From: Nostoc sp. NMS8
GTDB taxonomy: Bacteria > Cyanobacteriota > Cyanobacteriia > Cyanobacteriales > Nostocaceae
Direction: 5' to 3'
Length of the DNA: 64,000 nucleotides
Assembly: GCF_017115045.1 (NCBI RefSeq)
Contig: NZ_JABXKK010000105.1
Coordinates: 30,253 to 94,252 of the forward strand
Shown here: one piece after another, positions 4,893 to 13,740 of the stretch
How the letters are laid out: every line of letters begins with the position of its first letter
Position numbering within the stretch: the stretch's first letter is position 1
Program-made: the position numbers and the translations under genes
Notes under the pieces: generated by a model
Seen by the model: only the letters and a program-made list of their open reading frames with translations
Told to the model about the DNA's origin: nothing
Databases searched by the model: none

Positions 4893-6626
4893 ATGCTGAA
4901 GCAAACTTTTCCTTCCCCTGAGGCACTCCGACGGTTCCCTTTTGGTCTGGCTGATATTGCCCTCATTCTTGGCACATTAGTACTGCTGGCGTTGATTGCG
5001 CGTGTTGGTGCTGGAACATTAGTGAGCTTTGTACCACCAGATGTAGTACCAGGTATTAGTCTTGACCCGCGTAATTTACCCTATTACGCTGGGCGCTCAA
5101 CCCTGCGAATGTTTATTGCCCTGTTTTACTCAACGCTGTTCACTTTAATTTATGGTTACATTGCTGCTAAAAGCCGCCGTGCTGAAAGAGTTCTGATTCC
5201 CCTACTCGATATCTTGCAGTCGGTTCCAGTACTAGGCTTTTTGTCCATTACGGTTACAGGTTTTATTGCCCTGTTTCCCGGAAGCCTATTAGGACTAGAG
5301 GCAGCATCGATTTTTGCGATTTTCACCAGCCAAGTCTGGAACATGACCTTTTCGTTCTACCACTCACTGCGAACACTACCACCAGAACTAGATGAGGCCG
5401 TCAGGCTCTATCGGTTGTCGGGATGGCAGCGGTTCACCAAACTGGAATTTCCGACGGCCATGATTGGGCTGCTGTGGAATGCAATGATGAGTTTTGGAGG
5501 TGGCTGGTTTTTTGTCGCAGCGAGTGAAGCAATCAGCGTACTCAATCAGCAATACACTCTACCAGGAATTGGCTCTTATGTAGCCGCCGCAGTTGCCGCC
5601 AAGAATTTATCTGCCTTGGGTTGGGCGCTATTGACGATCGCGATCGTAATTATCCTAGTAAATCAACTATTTTGGCGACCATTAGTCGCTTGGGCAGATA
5701 AGTTCCGTCTGGAACAGAGTGCCGCAGCCCAAGCCCCCGAATCCTGGGTTTACGATCTGCTCAAAGCAGCCCGAATTCCGCGTCTACTGGGGCGGGTGTT
5801 AGCTCCTTTGGGTGAAGCTATCAATCGTATTCTCTCATTGCTAACGCCACCGCAAACTCGCCGTACTGTAAAGACTGGTGGGCAAGAAATAGGCGATCGC
5901 CTCTACAACTCGATCCTATTGGTAGTAATTGGTGGGTTGTTGGTTGTCGGGCTGCACTTCATTTTCACAACAGTGGGACTAAGTGAAGTCATCAAAACCT
6001 TTGGGCTAGGATTACTCACTCTGTTGCGTGTGCTGGTATTGCTGGTATTTTCAACTCTAGTTTGGACACCCGTTGGAGTAGCCATTGGGTTTAATCCCCG
6101 ACTAGCAACTTTGTTGCAGCCTGTGGTGCAATTCCTGGCTTCATTTCCAGCAAACTTTATCTTTCCCTTCGCTACCCTCTTCTTTATCCGTTCCCATATC
6201 AGCATTGATTGGGGTAGTATTCTGTTGATGTCCCTGGGCGCACAGTGGTATATCCTCTTCAACTCCATTGCTGGAGCGATGAGCGTCCCAACGGATTTGC
6301 GCGAGATGGCAACCAGCCTCGGTTTGCGTGGTTGGCTGCTGTGGCGCAAGTTAATCATTCCCGGCATCTTCTCCGCCTGGGTAACAGGTGGCGTCACTGC
6401 TACCGGTGGCGCATGGAACGCCAGTATTGTCTCTGAGGTTGTCGCTTGGGGTTCAACTACCCTGACTGCTAACGGATTGGGAGCATATATTGCTCACGCC
6501 ACCGGAGCAGGTGACTGGCCTCGGATTACCCTGGGGATTGGAATGATGAGCCTATTCGTTGTTGGCCTGAACAGAGTTTTTTGGCGACGATTGTATGAGT
6601 TAGCAGAAACCAAATACCATCTCTAA
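4893..6626 (+). CDS. ABC transporter permease, fused double permease (NitT/TauT-like family)
   Basis: 577 aa, highly hydrophobic, with two permease-like halves. The cognate ATPase follows 25 nt downstream. Confidence 0.8.
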   Translation: MLKQTFPSPEALRRFPFGLADIALILGTLVLLALIARVGAGTLVSFVPPDVVPGISLDPRNLPYYAGRSTLRMFIALFYSTLFTLIYGYIAAKSRRAERVLIPLLDILQSVPVLGFLSITVTGFIALFPGSLLGLEAASIFAIFTSQVWNMTFSFYHSLRTLPPELDEAVRLYRLSGWQRFTKLEFPTAMIGLLWNAMMSFGGGWFFVAASEAISVLNQQYTLPGIGSYVAAAVAAKNLSALGWALLTIAIVIILVNQLFWRPLVAWADKFRLEQSAAAQAPESWVYDLLKAARIPRLLGRVLAPLGEAINRILSLLTPPQTRRTVKTGGQEIGDRLYNSILLVVIGGLLVVGLHFIFTTVGLSEVIKTFGLGLLTLLRVLVLLVFSTLVWTPVGVAIGFNPRLATLLQPVVQFLASFPANFIFPFATLFFIRSHISIDWGSILLMSLGAQWYILFNSIAGAMSVPTDLREMATSLGLRGWLLWRKLIIPGIFSAWVTGGVTATGGAWNASIVSEVVAWGSTTLTANGLGAYIAHATGAGDWPRITLGIGMMSLFVVGLNRVFWRRLYELAETKYHL

Positions 6627-6651
6627 ACCATCGTTCGCTAGAGGAGCAAGG

Positions 6652-8001
6652 ATGACTTCTACCCAAGTTACTAATAACGTATTAATCTCTGTCGAACAAG
6701 TCAATAAGAGTTTTCCACTACCAGAGGGCAAAGGGGAATTTAAGGTTCTCCGCAACATTAATCTGACGGTAGCTGCGGGTGAAGTAGTAGCATTACTGGG
6801 GCGCAGTGGCAGCGGCAAAAGTACCTTACTACGGATTATGGCCGGCTTGATTCCAGCAAGTGAAGGTAGGGTAATCAGCAATGGTAAACGCCTGCAAGGT
6901 GCTAACCCTGGTGTCGCAATGGTATTTCAAAGCTTTGCACTGCTGCCCTGGCTGACAGTACAAGAAAACGTCGAGTTAGGGCTAGATGCCCAAGGTATTG
7001 GTCGAGATGAGCGACGACAACGAGCGCTAAAAGCTATTGACTTAGTGGGTTTGGATGGTTTTGAAAGTGCCTATCCTAAAGAGTTATCGGGGGGAATGAG
7101 ACAGCGGGTTGGCTTTGCTAGGGCATTTGTACTAGAGCCACAAGTACTATTTATGGATGAGCCATTCAGCGCCCTCGATGTATTGACGGCTGAGAACCTG
7201 CGGGGGGAAATTGATGATTTATGGAATGCTGGCACATTTCCATCCAAAAGTATTTTGATTGTCACCCACAACATTGAAGAAGCGCTGTTTTTGGCAGATC
7301 GGGTAATTATCTTGGGATCAAATCCGGGGCATATTCGCGGTGAGGTGGTGATTGATATGCCGCGGCCTCACGATCGCACCAGTATCCGCTTCAAATCACT
7401 GATAGATTATATCTACACGGTGATGACTAACCCAGATGTGGAAGTAACTGGGGCAGTTGCAACAACCACATCAACTATTATAGAAGTATCGCGATCGCCT
7501 GCTGCAATCCAAGAATCGCCCTATGCAAAGCCCTTGCCTCATGTCAGAGTCGGCGGTATTAGCGGTCTGTTGGAGTTAATTGTCGATCAACCAGAGGGCA
7601 AAGATGATATTCCCCGTTTGGCAGAACGAATCCGGCTAACCGTTGACGATCTCCTACCGATGCTTGATGCAACCGTGATGCTAGGCTTTGCTGAGGTTGC
7701 CCAAGGAGATGTTTTTCTCACCAAAATTGGACAAGATTTCGCAACTACAACTATTCTTCGCAGTAAAGACCTATTCCGGCAGCAAGTGTTATCAAATGTG
7801 CCAGTCGTCGTTAGCATGGTGCAGACATTGCGGGAAAAACGGAATCGCTCAATGCGAGCGGATTTCTTTATCGATTTACTTAATGAATATTATCCCCATG
7901 AAGAAGCCGAGCGGCAATTTGCCACAGCCGTAGATTGGGGGCGTTATGCCGAATTGTTTGAGTATGATGCTAGTGAAGATAGATTGTACTGCCAGAACTA
8001 G
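6652..8001 (+). CDS. ABC transporter ATP-binding protein with a roughly 190-aa C-terminal extension
   Basis: Walker A GRSGSGKST, signature LSGGMRQRV, Walker B LFMDEPFSALD. A long non-ABC C-terminal domain follows. Confidence 0.85.
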   Translation: MTSTQVTNNVLISVEQVNKSFPLPEGKGEFKVLRNINLTVAAGEVVALLGRSGSGKSTLLRIMAGLIPASEGRVISNGKRLQGANPGVAMVFQSFALLPWLTVQENVELGLDAQGIGRDERRQRALKAIDLVGLDGFESAYPKELSGGMRQRVGFARAFVLEPQVLFMDEPFSALDVLTAENLRGEIDDLWNAGTFPSKSILIVTHNIEEALFLADRVIILGSNPGHIRGEVVIDMPRPHDRTSIRFKSLIDYIYTVMTNPDVEVTGAVATTTSTIIEVSRSPAAIQESPYAKPLPHVRVGGISGLLELIVDQPEGKDDIPRLAERIRLTVDDLLPMLDATVMLGFAEVAQGDVFLTKIGQDFATTTILRSKDLFRQQVLSNVPVVVSMVQTLREKRNRSMRADFFIDLLNEYYPHEEAERQFATAVDWGRYAELFEYDASEDRLYCQN

Positions 8002-8166
8002 CAGCAACGCCAAGTAGTGAATCTGAGTCGATGGAATGACCGGAGGCAGATTGTCTCCGGCATAGTTACTGAATCTCTATTTTAGCTCCACTAATTCAGT
8101 GAACTAGTGGGCTATAGTTAATAACCATTCACTAGCAACCGTTGATAAATATGTGGGTGGGAAAAT

Positions 8167-9126
8167 TTATTTTTTGGAAATATTTAGTATTTTCAAAAGC
8201 GATCGCTCCATAACTTCGCTGACAAATTTATTGCCTTGCAAGTTGAGGTGAATATGATCGTGAAACAAACCTTGCGGGTTGGTAGTTGAATTGAAAGCTG
8301 GTAAAAAGTCTATATAGTTAATTTGCTGTGCTTTGGTAAAATCGCTCAAGCGCTGACGTGCTTTAATTTCGTAATCGCGGGGGCCCGGTTCACCAATTTC
8401 TCGTAGTAAGGGAGTCATGACAAGAAGAAATTGGCTGTTGCTTTGGCGAGTCAAGGCTTGAATTTTAGCGATCGCCTCTAGATTAATTCCCACGCGATCG
8501 CCTGGTTCATTTTGCACGGCTTGTAGTTCGGGAATTGACTTTTGTTTAAGGATATAACGCTGCCAAACTTCTGCTAACGCCAGAGGCGGTTTCCGATCTG
8601 GATAGTTGCGATCGCGTCCTACTGGTAAAGAAGTCGGAAGAGTAGCAAACAAATCATCTGTATTAATTAATAACACCACTGCTTGCGCGTTGAAATTGCC
8701 AAATTTCTCTAAATAAGCTAATTCGTTCCTTGGCCCCCAAGAGTTAGCTGAAGCATTTAACACTTCTACTTCCTGGTAATTACTATTAGTGGATGATACT
8801 AGAGAACGCATTATCAAACTAGATATTGTATTCGTCTGATCTGTCCACCAGCCACCATTAGCGATAGAATCACCTAATAGTAGAATTCGCAACCCAGAAG
8901 GTGCAGGTATCTTTTTGATCGGACTACCTCGCATAGAATATTCATTAATTTCAATGCGATTACCAAAACGGCGGGTACGTTGATTAGGAGCTAATAAATA
9001 ACCAATCTGCTCATCACCAATATAAATTAGGGGATTACCAAAACCGAAGAGCGATCGCAGTCCGATCTCAACTACCACAAACAATCCCACAACCACCGCC
9101 GAAATTACGATCAGTGCTATTTTCAC
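8167..9126 (-). CDS. SGNH/GDSL-family hydrolase with an N-terminal membrane anchor
   Basis: Block I ILLLGDSIANG, block V DHIHLN, N-terminal TM MKIALIVISAVVVGLFVVV. Confidence 0.75.
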   Translation of the reverse strand: MKIALIVISAVVVGLFVVVEIGLRSLFGFGNPLIYIGDEQIGYLLAPNQRTRRFGNRIEINEYSMRGSPIKKIPAPSGLRILLLGDSIANGGWWTDQTNTISSLIMRSLVSSTNSNYQEVEVLNASANSWGPRNELAYLEKFGNFNAQAVVLLINTDDLFATLPTSLPVGRDRNYPDRKPPLALAEVWQRYILKQKSIPELQAVQNEPGDRVGINLEAIAKIQALTRQSNSQFLLVMTPLLREIGEPGPRDYEIKARQRLSDFTKAQQINYIDFLPAFNSTTNPQGLFHDHIHLNLQGNKFVSEVMERSLLKILNISKK

Positions 9127-9169: not shown

Positions 9170-9297
9170 GGGGATTGGGGATTGAAAAGAGGCAAGGAAG
9201 CGGGGTGCGGGGTGCAAGGGGGATGAAGAAAAATCTCCTCTTATTCCCAATTTCCTCTTCTCCCTGCTCCCTGCCCCCTGCTCCCAATGCCCATTCC
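9170..9297. repeat. MITE-like small dispersed repeat (G-rich and C-rich arms) flanked by STRR-like units
   Basis: ggcaaggaagcggggtgcggggtgcaaggggg (9191-9222) opposes ctccctgctccctgccccctgctccc (9260-9285). Flanks are gggggattggggattg and aatgcccattcc. Confidence 0.6.
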
Positions 9298-9359
9298 TAA
9301 ATTCTTAGAGTGAATTTAACATCATCAGCAAAGAGAAAGACTACAATCAAAACGGACAA

Positions 9360-9536
9360 ATGTTTCATGCTCCAAAAACAGAGGATTACAAAGCTATGTC
9401 CGATTTAAATCGAGGAATTATGAAATTTGAGGGTGCAGATTCCCCAAAAGTAGTCACTATATCTACCGTGTTGCTTCTGGGATCGATCGCTGCTCTCATC
9501 GTCTGGGCGCTGCAAGCGGCCTATGCGCTAAACTAA
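9360..9536 (+). CDS. Small (58 aa) tail-anchored membrane protein, hypothetical
   Basis: Below the 60-aa cutoff of the ORF track. ATG 9360 to TAA 9534-9536 gives MFHAPKTEDYKAMSDLNRGIMKFEGADSPKVVTISTVLLLGSIAALIVWALQAAYALN, with one C-terminal TM helix. A hairpin ggacacttg..caagtgtcc follows. Confidence 0.45.
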   Translation: MFHAPKTEDYKAMSDLNRGIMKFEGADSPKVVTISTVLLLGSIAALIVWALQAAYALN

Positions 9537-9620
9537 AACCATTAGTAGTTTAGAAGGACACTTGTCTTAAACGGTTTCCGTCTTAGCCAAGTGTCCATTT
9601 AGGAACTAGTAATTGAAGAA

Positions 9621-9653
9621 GAATACAGAATACAGAATCCAGAATCCAGAATG
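9621..9653. repeat. STRR heptamer array (GAATACA/GAATCCA units)
   Basis: gaatacagaatacagaatccagaatccagaatg. Confidence 0.8.
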
Positions 9654-9721
9654 CTTTTCTTTGGGGGATTCAAACCCCTAGCTGATTGTAGACCTCTAAA
9701 TCTATAATTTGGATTGTTTTT

Positions 9722-9845
9722 TAAGTAAGTCGGCACAATAAAACCAAACTGTGTAAAGAGAAGTAAACAAGGCTCAAACTCTCTTTCCTCCTGCTCCCTG
9801 CTCCCTACCTTATCCCAACGATAATTATTTACGCCGACCTACTTA
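9722..9845. repeat. Small element bounded by inverted repeats (MITE-like)
   Basis: taagtaagtcggc (9722-9734) versus gccgacctactta (9833-9845), matching at 12 of 13 positions as an inverted repeat. The interior carries cctgctccctgctccct. Confidence 0.55.
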
Positions 9846-9870
9846 ACTCTTGTGTTCATGCCCTAGCCAT

Positions 9871-9903
9871 CATTCTGAATTCTGACTCCTGACTCCTGAA
9901 TTC
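9871..9903. repeat. STRR heptamer array, inverted relative to 9621-9653
   Basis: cattctgaattctgactcctgactcctgaattc. Confidence 0.8.
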
Positions 9904-10002
9904 TTTCTATAAAAAGCCCCCTAATAACCATCAAAAATTTCAGTAAAACTTTAGATTTGAGGTTTTAGATGGAAAATTTAAATCTAAAATCCAAAATCCA
10001 GA

Positions 10003-12906
10003 ATGTTTGAACCTTGGGGTGTCTTAGTTATTGTAATTATCTGCCCCCTCTTGGGCGGATTACCCCTGATTGAATGGATTACTTACGCCCTCAAGCGGAA
10101 GCGATTATCACAAGTTGGTACAAGAAATATTAGTGTATCGGCTGCATTTTATCATGGTGGTAAATTTGTCGGCATTTTGGCAGTCTTGTCAGAAGCTTTT
10201 AAAGGAGTTGCGGCAGTTTTACTCACCCGCGCTTTCTTTCCTGATGGATCGTCTTGGGAATTGGTTGCCCTGATTGCTCTAGTAATTGGTAGATACTGGA
10301 TTGGTAGAGGGGCAGGTACGACAAATGTTGTCTGGGGATTTGTCGTACACGATCCACTAGTGGCAATGTTTGTGTCTTTCTTTGCAGGTATTAGTTTTAC
10401 AATTCTGCAATCAAGAAAGGTAGTCAAATTCGGAGTTTTGCTTCTTTTCCCTCTGTTTGTGGCAATTCTGCACTTTAACGATATTCCCAGAATACTTGTT
10501 GCTGTTGCCTTAGCGGGTTTAATGGGCTGGATTTATCGCAAAATTCCTGATGATATGAACCTGCCAGCCCAAGAGGCACAAACAGAATCGCAAGCAATGT
10601 TGGAATTTTTACGCGGCGACCGCACAACGGTTTCTTTAGACGAAGAGTTGGATGCTGCCATTGTCGGAGAAAAGGCGGCGACGTTATCGCAAATCAAGCG
10701 CTGGGGCTATCCAGTACCGAAAGGGTGGGTACTCGCGCCAATCGATAATCCCGAACTGTTGACATTTCTCCAGCCATCAGAATTATCTCCCTTAGTAGTG
10801 CGTTCCTCTGCGATTGGAGAAGATTCTGAACGCGCTTCTGCTGCTGGACAATATCAAACAGTTTTAAATGTTATCAGTGTAGAGGGATTGCAACAAGCGA
10901 TCGCTCAAGTCCAAGCTTCCTACAATCATCCCTCTGCTATCCAATATCGGCGCGATCGCGGCTCAAATGATACAGCAATGGCTGTGTTGATTCAACAACA
11001 AGTCCAGAGTGTCTTTTCTGGTGTTGCTTTCAGCCGCGATCCCATTACCCAGCAAGGTGATGCAATTATCATTGAAGCCCTTCCAGGCAGCGCGACGCAA
11101 GTTGTTTCGGGAAAAGTCACACCAGAACAATATCGCGCTTTTGTTATTGAAACAGAAAATTCTTACTCTGTACAATTAGAGGGTCAAGGACGAGTCCCAC
11201 AAGCATTAATCAAACAAGTTGCATACTTAGCCTACCGACTGGAAAAACGTTATCATGGCACTCCCCAAGATATTGAGTGGAGTTATGATGGTCAAACGCT
11301 TTGGGTATTGCAATCTCGACCAATCACTACTCTGCTGCCCATCTGGACACGCAAAATCGCCGCCGAAGTGATTCCTGGAGTCATTCACCCCTTAACATGG
11401 TCGATTAATCGTCCCTTAACTTGTGGAGTTTGGGGAGAATTTTTTACTTTAGTTTTGGGCGATGCCTTCGGCAACGGCAAAGCCGAACGCGCCTTGGGGT
11501 TAGATTTCACCGAGACAGCAAGTCTGCATTACTCCAGAGCCTATTTTAATGCCTCCCTCTTAGGAGATATTTTTCTCCGTATGGGATTGCCACCGGAAAG
11601 TCTGGAATTTTTAACCAGAGGAGCTAAATTAAGTAAACCATCCTTGCAGTCAACCTGGAAAAATTTGCCAGGACTAGGGAAGTTACTGAAGCGGGAATTA
11701 AGTTTAGAAAAGGACTTCAAGGAGGATTATTATAAACTGTTTATTCCTGGATTGTCGCAGCTGGCACAGGAAAACGTCGATAATTTGGATGGTTCCAAGC
11801 TGTTAGCAAGAATTGACTTTATTCTGGAGTTGCTGCACCGAGGAACATATTACAGCATTTTAGCTCCCTTGAGTGCTGCTCTGAGACAGGCGATTTTCCG
11901 GGTGAAAGATAGCCAAATGGATTATAGCGTCACACCAGAGATTGCAGCATTAAGAACACTCAGTGCGATCGCAACCGATGCCAAGCAGATATTGCCTGAG
12001 TTTGAGCCACAGCAGGTATTTGAGCAATTGAAGCAAACCCCAGAGGGTGAAAAAATCCTCCAAGAATTTAACGAATTACTTCAGGATTACGGTTACCTAA
12101 GTGAAGTTGGAACCGATATCTCCGTTCCTACTTGGCGGGAGAATCCCCAGATGATTCAGCAGATGTTTGTGCAGTTAATGCAGGGGAACGAACCACAAGC
12201 AGGCGCTAAAGATGCAATTAATAGTATCTTTGCCAGTAAGCGCAAACGTGGATTTGTCCAGCGGCGTGTAGATATTAAAGGACGAGTCACCGAAGTTTAT
12301 TCGCGGCTTTTAGCTGAATTGCGTTGGAGTTTTCTGGCTTTAGAGAAAATTTGGTTAGAGTCTGGTTTACTCAGAAAAACAGGCGATATCTTTTTTCTAG
12401 AGTTTGATGAAGTGCGGCGTTTAGTTTTAGGTGAAGATTCCAACTTAGATGAGTTAGTGGAATTTAGGCGATCGCAATTTCTGCAAGATAGTGAGATTAT
12501 TCAAGTACCTCTTTTAGTCTACGGCAATACACCTCCTCACCCCTTAGCGCCCTCTGAGGTTTACTCTGACCAAATTTTACAAGGTATTGGAGCCAGTCAT
12601 GGGCAAGCTGAAGGGAGAGTAAAGGTGTTGCGAAATTTACAAGACGTGCCGGAGATTAATCGGGATACAATTCTAGTAGTACCTTACACAGATTCCGGCT
12701 GGGCACCATTGTTATTAAGGGCTGGCGGATTAATTGCCGAAGCTGGTGGAAGACTTTCTCATGGTGCGATCGTTGCTCGTGAGTATGGAATTCCCGCAGT
12801 GATGGATGTTCACGGTGCTACATGGCTTCTGCAAGATGGGCAACGAGTCAGGATTGATGGGTCTAGGGGTATTGTGGAATTATCTAATGATTTAAGACCC
12901 GAATGA
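10003..12906 (+). CDS. Fusion protein: PlsY-like polytopic membrane domain, ATP-grasp (PPDK_N-type) domain, helical middle domain, and C-terminal swivelling phosphohistidine (PEP-utilizer mobile) domain
   Basis: The N-terminus GGLPLIEWITYALKRKRLSQVGTRNISVSAAFYHGG...SEAFKG resembles PlsY motifs 1 and 2 but is degenerate. VVRSSAIGEDSERASAAGQYQTV and DIEWSYDGQTLWVLQSRPIT are PPDK_N-type. The C-terminal GGRLSHGAIVAREYGIPAV is the phosphohistidine loop. No PEP/pyruvate TIM-barrel segment is recognisable. Confidence 0.8.
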   Translation: MFEPWGVLVIVIICPLLGGLPLIEWITYALKRKRLSQVGTRNISVSAAFYHGGKFVGILAVLSEAFKGVAAVLLTRAFFPDGSSWELVALIALVIGRYWIGRGAGTTNVVWGFVVHDPLVAMFVSFFAGISFTILQSRKVVKFGVLLLFPLFVAILHFNDIPRILVAVALAGLMGWIYRKIPDDMNLPAQEAQTESQAMLEFLRGDRTTVSLDEELDAAIVGEKAATLSQIKRWGYPVPKGWVLAPIDNPELLTFLQPSELSPLVVRSSAIGEDSERASAAGQYQTVLNVISVEGLQQAIAQVQASYNHPSAIQYRRDRGSNDTAMAVLIQQQVQSVFSGVAFSRDPITQQGDAIIIEALPGSATQVVSGKVTPEQYRAFVIETENSYSVQLEGQGRVPQALIKQVAYLAYRLEKRYHGTPQDIEWSYDGQTLWVLQSRPITTLLPIWTRKIAAEVIPGVIHPLTWSINRPLTCGVWGEFFTLVLGDAFGNGKAERALGLDFTETASLHYSRAYFNASLLGDIFLRMGLPPESLEFLTRGAKLSKPSLQSTWKNLPGLGKLLKRELSLEKDFKEDYYKLFIPGLSQLAQENVDNLDGSKLLARIDFILELLHRGTYYSILAPLSAALRQAIFRVKDSQMDYSVTPEIAALRTLSAIATDAKQILPEFEPQQVFEQLKQTPEGEKILQEFNELLQDYGYLSEVGTDISVPTWRENPQMIQQMFVQLMQGNEPQAGAKDAINSIFASKRKRGFVQRRVDIKGRVTEVYSRLLAELRWSFLALEKIWLESGLLRKTGDIFFLEFDEVRRLVLGEDSNLDELVEFRRSQFLQDSEIIQVPLLVYGNTPPHPLAPSEVYSDQILQGIGASHGQAEGRVKVLRNLQDVPEINRDTILVVPYTDSGWAPLLLRAGGLIAEAGGRLSHGAIVAREYGIPAVMDVHGATWLLQDGQRVRIDGSRGIVELSNDLRPE

Positions 12907-13250
12907 TTACCACTTCCCTCCAAGATTTGCCTGAAGAGTCTGTTTCTCACAATGCCGCAATCAAGAAAAAGGTGATGCTACGCTTCGGCGATTTACCTCA
13001 CCTCACAAACTTTTCTCAAGCACGTTTTGCTCCTGGACAAACCGCACCAGCACACGCGCACCAAGATATGTGTGAAGTATTCTTTGTGGAAGCCGGTTCG
13101 GGAGTAATTCACATTGATGCTAAAGAATACCCCCTGCTTCCGGGAAACTGCGTAGCGATAGAACCAGGAGAAGTACACGAAGTTGTCAATAGTGGCTCAA
13201 CTGAGCTTGTTTTGACATACTTTGGTTTGCGAGTCGAAAAATCAAGCTAA
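12903..13250 (+). CDS. Cupin-domain protein
   Basis: Cupin motifs PAHAHQDMCEVFFVEAGSG and GNCVAIEPGEVHEVVN. The ATG overlaps the upstream stop codon (ATGA, 4-nt overlap). Confidence 0.8.
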   Translation: MITTSLQDLPEESVSHNAAIKKKVMLRFGDLPHLTNFSQARFAPGQTAPAHAHQDMCEVFFVEAGSGVIHIDAKEYPLLPGNCVAIEPGEVHEVVNSGSTELVLTYFGLRVEKSS

Positions 13251-13383: not shown

Positions 13384-13740
13384 CTAATATACCAAAGGTG
13401 TTGCACCGCGCATTTGACGTAAAGAATTTATACAAGCAGCACAGTCGCAACCAAATAAGTTGATTGCCATATCGCTTTCTTGGTCATTGAATTGTAGCAT
13501 CGGAGCATCTTCTTGAGAAAACTCTATTTCTGGCTGATATTTAGGAATTTGAGCCAATACAGAAGCCCTGGCACACACTAAACCAACTTTATGTTTATTG
13601 CGTATACAAGATAAACGGTCTGTGGTTTTGGCTTCTGATTGTGGCTCCATAGCTTGTGCTGGATTGAGCATCACTCCCATAGAGAGAATAGAGCTAATCA
13701 GTACAGGAGAAGAAAGCAAACTCAAGATGAATTTGTTCAT
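13384..13740 (-). CDS. Secreted hypothetical protein with a C-terminal GCDCAACINSLRQMRG cysteine motif
   Basis: Signal-peptide-like N-terminus MNKFILSLLSSPVLISSILSMGVMLNPAQA. 118 aa. Confidence 0.6.
   Translation of the reverse strand: MNKFILSLLSSPVLISSILSMGVMLNPAQAMEPQSEAKTTDRLSCIRNKHKVGLVCARASVLAQIPKYQPEIEFSQEDAPMLQFNDQESDMAINLFGCDCAACINSLRQMRGATPLVY

Follow-up and report, generated by a model that had tools for sequence, protein, structure and literature searches.

A PlsY-fold membrane domain fused to an Rph-type dikinase in Nostoc sp. NMS8: a candidate two-module membrane enzyme of cyanobacteria

Two groups of described enzymes are closest to the protein presented here. The first comprises the Listeria rifampin phosphotransferase Rph-Lm (PDB 5fbs/5hv1) and the prodiginine ligases PigC, HapC and RedH; for Rph and PigC, PMC4844700 and PMC13534948 describe no fused membrane domain or PlsY-like partner. 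The second is PlsY, the acyl-phosphate:glycerol-3-phosphate (G3P) acyltransferase, represented by the Aquifex structures 5xj5-5xj9. In a 64,000-nucleotide (nt) stretch of Nostoc sp. NMS8 (the window, within which all positions are counted), an open reading frame (ORF) of 967 amino acids (aa) combines a PlsY-like membrane domain with an Rph-type dikinase in a single protein, referred to as the fusion.

With Rph-Lm and the prodiginine ligases, the fusion has the domain order, the catalytic His and the ATP-grasp residues in common, and by analogy a stoichiometry of ATP to AMP, inorganic phosphate (Pi) and phospho-substrate would be expected. The identity to this group is only about 20-22%, however, and the Arg666-Glu667 pair is retained only in part. 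With Aquifex PlsY, the fusion shares the seven-helix fold, a motif-1-like G(S/T)GN, D/ExxKG, a glycine-rich loop 3 and the membrane orientation with a cytoplasmic C-terminus. Unlike PlsY, it is about 780 aa longer, the side-chain binders of G3P and acyl-phosphate are replaced, R183 is changed to D184 and other basic residues of the pocket are lost.

Two further systems have to be compared. HpeHI, MarK and phenylphosphate synthase belong to the same dikinase superfamily, with modules split over adjacent genes (PMC12167813), and HpeI (PDB 9goj) was found among the structural matches of the fusion; unlike the fusion, they are soluble, act on small aromatic (phenolic) substrates and have no PlsY-like partner. 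FakA/FakB feeding PlsY and the PlsY-DegV (FakB-like) fusions follow the same logic, a module making or carrying acyl-phosphate on the C-terminus of a PlsY fold, and are possible functional analogues. FakA is, however, a Dak-type kinase making ADP and not a phosphohistidine dikinase, and has no sequence relationship to the fusion. PlsY with a C-terminal FakB-like fatty-acid-binding domain was discussed in terms of acyl-phosphate channelling, and PlsY-DegV was the only type reported where PlsY fusions were looked for (PMC5700162).

The gene and its domains are located as follows:

10003..12906, + strand: fusion, complete ORF with ATG start, 967 aa, PlsY-like membrane domain followed by Rph-type dikinase
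10003..10557, + strand: aa 1-185, seven-helix membrane domain of the PlsY superfamily (Pfam and predicted fold), non-canonical as a G3P acyltransferase
10558..10647, + strand: aa 186-215, acidic flexible linker (low model confidence, charge, low conservation)
10648..11343, + strand: aa 216-447, ATP-grasp nucleotide-binding domain (PPDK_N and Rph-Lm alignment)
11344..12582, + strand: aa 448-860, central, mostly helical domain, counterpart of the rifampin-binding domain of Rph (Pfam Rph_4th)
12583..12882, + strand: aa 861-960, C-terminal swivelling phosphohistidine domain (PEP-utilizers)
12760..12762, + strand: codon of His920 (GGRLSHG), predicted phospho-carrier His by alignment to Rph-Lm His825

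As judged from the sequence and the structure model, the kinase part (the C-terminal 750 residues) belongs to the Rph/PigC class, with the order ATP-grasp domain, central Rph-type domain and C-terminal swivelling His domain. An earlier note, written from the DNA letters and translations, had proposed this Rph-like order instead of that of a phosphoenolpyruvate (PEP) synthase, as well as the lack of a PEP/pyruvate TIM barrel, and both proposals were borne out. In Pfam, PPDK_N matched aa 262-444 with 149.9 bits and PEP-utilizers matched aa 886-956 with 78.5 bits, and the fourth precomputed match on homologues of the fusion is PF27448 (Rph_4th). The TIM-barrel family PEP-utilizers_C (PF02896), sought by profile search, gave no match on the fusion even at E<=1. 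The His domain is located at the C-terminus and not centrally as in PEP synthase or pyruvate phosphate dikinase (PPDK).

The best PDB sequence matches are the Listeria rifampin phosphotransferase structures 5fbs and 5hv1 (E 7.5e-50), and the family profile reached Rph-Lm at E 2e-102. The AlphaFold2 model of the whole fusion has a mean predicted local distance difference test (pLDDT) of 84.4 and a predicted template modelling score (pTM) of 0.70. Its best Foldseek match is again Rph-Lm (5hv1/5hv3, E 5e-31 over about 900 columns), whereas PPDK and PpsA structures align through the ATP-grasp and His domains only. Among the NCBIfam models, the PRK06241-type "PEP synthase" subfamilies, RIF_Ptrans_rph, PigC and RedH ranked on top, all far under their curated cutoffs: the Rph equivalogs NF041857 / NF000283 gave 233 bits vs 999 and 163 bits vs 1700, PigC 219 bits vs 1300 and PEP_synth 188 bits vs 740. 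Because of these low scores, the fusion is not regarded as an orthologue of Rph, PigC, RedH or the PRK06241-type proteins.

The first half-reaction of Rph needs K22, R117 and T136 together with the phospho-carrier H825 (PMC4844700). In the alignment, the first three are kept in the fusion as K224, R267 and T286, and His920 in GGRLSHG aligns to His825 in GGLMTHG of Rph-Lm. His920 is invariant in 25 of 25 diverse fusions.

For the membrane domain, the PlsY-like character that the earlier note had assigned by eye to the first 190 or so residues could be verified. The family G3P_acyltransf/PlsY (PF02660) matched aa 13-179 with 62-67 bits at a gathering score of 24.1. A separate model of aa 1-190 (pLDDT 93.5, pTM 0.88) was compared with the PDB by Foldseek and retrieved PlsY structures only (5xj5 to 5xj8), with template modelling scores of 0.73-0.79 and root-mean-square deviations of 2.6-2.9 Å, the first non-PlsY match having E>2. 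The deeper family profile A2 of this domain found 5xj5 at E 2e-14. PlsY was not found in the PDB by phmmer with the single sequence of aa 1-200, and a shallow cyanobacterial profile reached it at E 1.4 only; the link is significant via Pfam, profile A2 and the fold comparison only. The cutoff of the PlsY equivalog TIGR00023, 137.2 bits, was not reached: the whole fusion gave 20.9 bits and the isolated membrane domain 26.9 bits.

Clusters of Lys and Arg at residues 31-34, 138-139 and 179-180 are located on one side of the predicted membrane domain, and the opposite loops are acidic or neutral. The predicted topology fits the PlsY seven-helix layout with a cytoplasmic C-terminus, which would let the kinase face ATP on the side where the PlsY pocket opens.

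The membrane domain was aligned with the PlsY proteins of E. coli and Aquifex, and the roles of the residues were taken from PMC5700162. The functional positions of Aquifex PlsY correspond to the following residues of the fusion:

S35, G3P phosphate clamp: T40
R45, G3P phosphate clamp: Y50
K104, G3P phosphate clamp: gap
N180, G3P phosphate clamp: I181
H177, binder of the G3P 2-OH: Y178
S142, binder of the G3P 2-OH: K
T41, acyl-phosphate side-chain binder: S46
H92, acyl-phosphate side-chain binder: R97
R183, conserved basic residue of motif 3: D184, charge reversed

The degeneracy of the three PlsY motifs, already noticed before, is thus visible residue by residue; the translation contains the strings GTRNISVSAAFY, EAFKG, GRYWIGRGAG and GGRLSHGAIVAREYGIPAV. 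One detail had to be revised. GRYW had been read as the His position of motif 3, and the residue is indeed replaced, but R97 aligns to Aquifex His92, outside the three motifs, and motif 3 itself (H177..N180) aligns to Y178..I181 (PMC5700162).

The same G3P-site losses were found in 13 of 13 other fusions aligned, cyanobacterial and non-cyanobacterial, and in the non-cyanobacterial ones the T41 position is A and the H92 position T, V, A or N. The scaffold is kept in the fusions (S/T35, N37, D/E59, K62 and the glycine-rich loop 3 in PlsY numbering); in the Nostoc protein the glycine-rich phosphate-hole loop reads GKGAGTT, and four residues are deleted in the loop after the H92 position. In 19 cyanobacterial sequences, the polar residues T40, N42, S46, Y50, H51, E64, K67, R97, T107 and N108, located at PlsY active-site positions, are invariant. 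The membrane domain diverges at about the rate of the central domain, while the His domain is the slowest and the linker the least conserved; for the homologue P0211, the identities are 50% (N-terminal), 57% (ATP-grasp), 54% (central) and 71% (His).

An exhaustive search over representatives at 50% identity revealed full-length fusions down to 27% identity, and all three Pfam domains were present on 10 of 10 of the most distant ones checked. Among the matches listed, the closest homologues are 96% identical and belong to Nostoc spp. Among reference genomes, the fusion was found in Nostocales, Chroococcidiopsis, Leptolyngbya, Nodosilinea, Coleofasciculus, Microcoleus, Lyngbya, Microcystis, Pleurocapsa, Crocosphaera and Thermosynechococcaceae. 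Outside the cyanobacteria, it occurs in one Saccharibacteria genome, one Pirellulales metagenome-assembled genome (MAG) and Thermotogota MAGs. The fusion is therefore no rarity but widespread, with representatives in most cyanobacterial orders, and no protein of Synechocystis 6803 or S. elongatus was among the matches listed.

In the sources, at least five mutually incompatible names are used for the fusion among the matches listed. The automatic names include G3P acyltransferase, given to most homologues, PEP synthase and PPDK; through such mislabelling, metabolic reconstructions may include an enzyme of lipid or central-carbon metabolism that the organism does not have in this protein. No published work on the fusion or an orthologue was found in the literature searched, in agreement with the earlier note, which knew of no characterised member, and as far as this search showed the family is uncharacterised. 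The fusion also widens the known range of Rph homologues, a "large unexplored group" (PMC4844700).

One full-length fusion of 44% identity is located on a contig labelled as an Actinomycetota MAG (L042; loci are given with our own numbers). Several of its flanking clusters are common to the Microcoleus-type loci L045, L047 and L052, and the contig is probably cyanobacterial and was assigned to the wrong bin.

The closest unfused relatives of the kinase part have about 780 aa and are 30-36% identical over aa 210-960 of the fusion. A PF02660 gene directly adjoins the kinase gene in seven of ten representatives looked up and in three additional genome loci (L072, L074, L076). It is located upstream with a 16-nt overlap in L086. 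In L087/L088, L091, L092/L093, L094, L072 and L076 it follows the kinase gene downstream, either overlapping it by 4 nt or separated from it by 4-31 nt. The two genes are convergent in L082/L083 and divergent in L074. In L084, the downstream ORF is truncated by the contig end and is PlsY-like by the family hidden Markov model (HMM) and tblastn only. A genome generally carries about one or two PF02660 genes, so adjacency by chance would be expected near 0.1%.

The separately encoded partners (n=9 sequences) form a second PlsY subfamily, here called type B as opposed to the fused type A. They keep the determinants of acyl-phosphate binding, with T41 in eight of nine, H92 and P95 in all nine and the GGRG loop, and D59 and K62 are likewise kept in nine of nine. 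The G3P determinants N37, R45, H177 and N180 are missing, as is R183, with N180 changed to D, E or Q. Proteins that act together classically show such a pattern, being fused in some lineages and closely adjacent, in several gene orders, in others. As the two modules occur in several phyla either in one protein or as adjacent genes, joint action on a membrane lipid is probable.

In the Thermotogaceae MAG of L070, a PlsY-like ORF (5313-5957) and a kinase ORF (5887-8295) are located in different frames with a 70-nt overlap; a split system was considered and rejected here, as the overlap most likely results from a frameshift or assembly error within the fusion gene.

A protein of about 400 aa with N-terminal transmembrane helices and a ferrochelatase/CbiX-like domain adjoins the kinase gene in six non-cyanobacterial loci, one of them the Saccharibacteria genome:

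L066, 8984-10213, - strand: chelatase-like neighbour
L074, 728-1921, - strand: chelatase-like neighbour
L085, 1-960, - strand: chelatase-like neighbour
L086, 5355-6560, + strand: chelatase-like neighbour
L089, 3609-4598, + strand: chelatase-like neighbour
L090, 1628-2863, - strand: chelatase-like neighbour, assigned by precomputed Pfam matches only

The first five are 41-56% identical in tblastn searches started from the proteins of L086 and L066. The chelatase-like protein looks like a third recurrent component; it was not found in the window or the cyanobacterial loci. Furthermore, a polytopic membrane ORF of about 200 aa is located beside a soluble kinase in L085 (3381-4040, + strand) and L090 (5663-6256, - strand), where no PlsY-like gene is present. 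Both ORFs look alike by eye, have no Pfam match and no match to the PlsY-like HMM, and may represent an alternative membrane partner of the kinase.

The best explanation for these data, to which we assign a probability of roughly 0.45, is that the fusion is a two-module integral membrane enzyme in which the PlsY-like module handles a lipophilic substrate and His920 passes its phosphate to this substrate. By analogy with the Rph mechanism (PMC4844700), His920 would attack the beta-phosphate of ATP with release of AMP and Pi. The swivelling domain would then move to the central domain and phosphorylate an oxygen of the lipophilic substrate. From the pairing of the modules, the PlsY-like pocket, open to the cytoplasmic leaflet, may supply the lipid substrate or accept the phosphorylated intermediate. 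Taken in its general form, as a coupling of the two modules whatever the chemistry, this idea is reasonably probable.

A more specific and rather doubtful version would involve acyl-phosphate. Speculatively, a free fatty acid or another lipid carboxylate could be converted to an acyl-phosphate, from which the PlsY-like module could transfer the acyl group to some acceptor different from G3P. This version draws support from the type B partners, which keep exactly the acyl-phosphate-binding residues, and from the fact that, to our knowledge, acyl-phosphate-dependent acyl transfer is the only chemistry of the PlsY family. Two precedents also argue for it, namely the fusion of PlsY to FakB-like domains and succinyl-CoA synthetase, where acyl-phosphate is formed from a phosphohistidine beside an ATP-grasp domain.

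Several points weigh against the two-module enzyme. The fused type A domain, including that of the Nostoc protein, has changed side-chain binders of acyl-phosphate (T41 to S, H92 to R), and H92 of the Aquifex enzyme aaPlsY had no functional replacement (PMC5700162). The phosphate-positioning residues R666-E667..K670 of Rph (GYREYPK) align to K759-G760-R761..T763, so that basic residues are present and the Glu is absent, with an alignment uncertainty of 1-2 positions. The linker between the modules is predicted to be disordered: in the whole-protein model, aa 187-207 have a pLDDT below 50, and the segment aa 181-215 contains nine D/E vs two K/R. Two cyanobacterial fusions, P0219 and P0228, lack the motif-1 segment GTGN..SAAF (aa ~30-60) while the kinase part is intact, so that the membrane domain seems to be less constrained in some lineages. 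No conserved lipid-metabolism neighbour of the fusion was found in cyanobacteria among 80 related loci, and substrate and activity of the enzyme are themselves predictions. We also know of no member of the Rph/PigC/PpsA family that phosphorylates a carboxylate.

That a PlsY fold and an Rph-type dikinase are conserved as a pair speaks for a hitherto undescribed reaction on membrane lipids. That the pair constitutes an unrecognised, phylogenetically broad system of lipid activation, in which acyl-phosphate made by the dikinase is channelled to a PlsY-fold acyltransferase not using G3P, is a conjecture of low probability. If true, it would add a third route of fatty-acid activation beside the acyl-acyl carrier protein/coenzyme A synthetases and FakAB, and a new acyl-lipid product. 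The question is testable in genetically tractable cyanobacteria and, in the split form, in other phyla.

It is unlikely, yet deserves to be weighed first among the alternatives, that the PlsY-like module serves as a membrane anchor or docking subunit only. The substrate of the Rph-like kinase would then be a hydrophobic compound that partitions into the membrane, either a xenobiotic or a secondary metabolite, and its phosphorylation would serve to detoxify it or to activate a pathway, as Rph or PigC do; the chemistry would take place wholly in the central domain. The retained and conserved Rph-type central substrate domain is in line with this, as are the replaced PlsY catalytic residues, the deletion of motif 1 in some members, the long disordered linker and the different small membrane protein beside the soluble relatives of L085 and L090. 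Against these stand the invariant polar residues at the pocket positions in the 19 cyanobacterial sequences, the phosphate-hole residues kept by the type B partners, and the repeated pairing of the kinase with specifically a PlsY fold in independent lineages, in two subfamilies and several gene orders. The earlier note had considered that the PlsY-like part decayed into a simple anchor. Decay is unlikely, because the membrane domain diverges as slowly as the central domain and a PlsY-family partner recurs, fused or adjacent, in several phyla.

Less plausible still is a lipid hydroxyl kinase, in which the PlsY-like pocket would present a lipid head group and phospho-His920 would form a phosphate ester on monoacylglycerol, diacylglycerol, polyprenol or another isoprenoid alcohol. 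The characterised Rph-class enzymes all phosphorylate hydroxyl or carbonyl oxygens (PMC4844700, PMC13534948, PMC12167813), the PlsY pocket takes monoacylglycerol and lysophosphatidic acid (PDB 5xj5, 5xj8), and the GKGAGTT loop is kept. However, in PlsY the pocket is located half-way into the cytoplasmic leaflet (PMC5700162), a depth to which the swivel domain would have to extend, and the retained central domain would be left without an obvious role. Moreover, as is generally known, cyanobacteria own other kinases for such lipids.

A genuine G3P acyltransferase, as in the automatic NCBI name, is highly improbable. It has in its favour the PF02660 match above the gathering score, which the database names follow. 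Nevertheless, R45, K104, N180 and H177 of PlsY are replaced or deleted, S35 is Thr, and both T41 and H92 are replaced; single substitutions at G3P- or acyl-phosphate-site positions nearly abolished the activity of aaPlsY (PMC5700162). The essential PlsY homologue of Synechocystis is, according to a review, Sll1973, a different gene from the fusion (PMC10114076). Because of these replacements, the TIGR00023 score of 21-27 bits vs 137 and the separate cyanobacterial homologue, the name "glycerol-3-phosphate acyltransferase" is, as read from the sequence, almost certainly wrong. An ordinary PEP synthase or PPDK, named in some automatic annotations on account of PPDK_N and PEP-utilizers, can practically be discarded given the absence of PEP-utilizers_C at E<=1, the C-terminal His domain, the best sequence and fold matches to Rph instead of PpsA or PPDK, and the PEP_synth score of 188 bits vs 740.

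The gene directly downstream of the fusion encodes a cupin:

12903..13250, + strand: single-domain cupin (Cupin_2), 115 aa, with its ATG in the ATGA overlap with the upstream stop codon

Both ORFs and their overlap (gaATGAtt), reported before, were confirmed. The cupin has a Cupin_2 match of 57 bits, its translation contains HAHQDMCE and PGEVHEV (His/Glu metal motif), and among solved structures, small cupins whose function is unclear come nearest to it. A conserved partnership with the fusion was not supported. For this, a neighbourhood set of 80 related loci was analyzed by tblastn with the neighbours of the window. The cupin adjoins the fusion in 6 of the 80 loci, all Nostocales (L002, L003, L005, L008, L009 and L061), with a spacing from overlap to about 320 nt. 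It is absent from the Nostoc loci L004, L006 and L060, which are 88-89% identical, and from every non-Nostocales locus of the set. Since the cupin is that rare, variably spaced and missing from close relatives, the ATGA overlap is no evidence of a conserved partnership, and the cupin was rejected as a conserved partner and regarded as lineage-specific. An ORF of 118 aa at 13384-13740 (- strand), with an N-terminal signal-peptide-like hydrophobic stretch, several cysteines and no Pfam match, accompanies the cupin in L002, L003 and L005 and is located elsewhere in L008.

All-vs-all clustering of the flanking ORFs of the 80 loci revealed no neighbour conserved across cyanobacteria. ATP-binding cassette (ABC) ATPases, present in 12 of the 80 loci, and FtsX-type permeases, present in 9 of the 80, were rejected as partners, as these counts are close to a rough chance estimate for such abundant families. 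In the window, an ABC transporter pair is located upstream at 4893-8001 (+ strand), consisting of a BPD_transp_1 permease of double length (577 aa) and a 449-aa ATPase that carries an AAA_assoc_C domain at its C-terminus, and is unlinked to the fusion in other genomes. Near the fusion gene, no RNA elements were identified by Rfam, and promoter and terminator scans around it were not above the shuffled expectation.

Divergent from the fusion, the gene at 8167-9126 (- strand) encodes a hydrolase of the GDSL/SGNH type with a hydrophobic segment at the N-terminus. Homologues occupy the corresponding place in L006, L008 and L061, all of them Nostocales; the lipase-like neighbour is suggestive but not more widely conserved. 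The 876-bp intergenic region upstream of the fusion contains a candidate ORF of 58 aa (MFHAPKTEDYKAMSDLNRGIMKFEGADSPKVVTISTVLLLGSIAALIVWALQAAYALN) at 9360-9536 (+ strand), with a C-terminal hydrophobic helix and no Pfam match. Furthermore, seven arrays of 7-bp tandem repeats are located in this region at 9170-10004, e.g., AGAATAC x4.7, CTCCCTG x3.7 and ATTCTGA x4.7, which we take to resemble the short tandemly repeated heptamers of Nostocales genomes.

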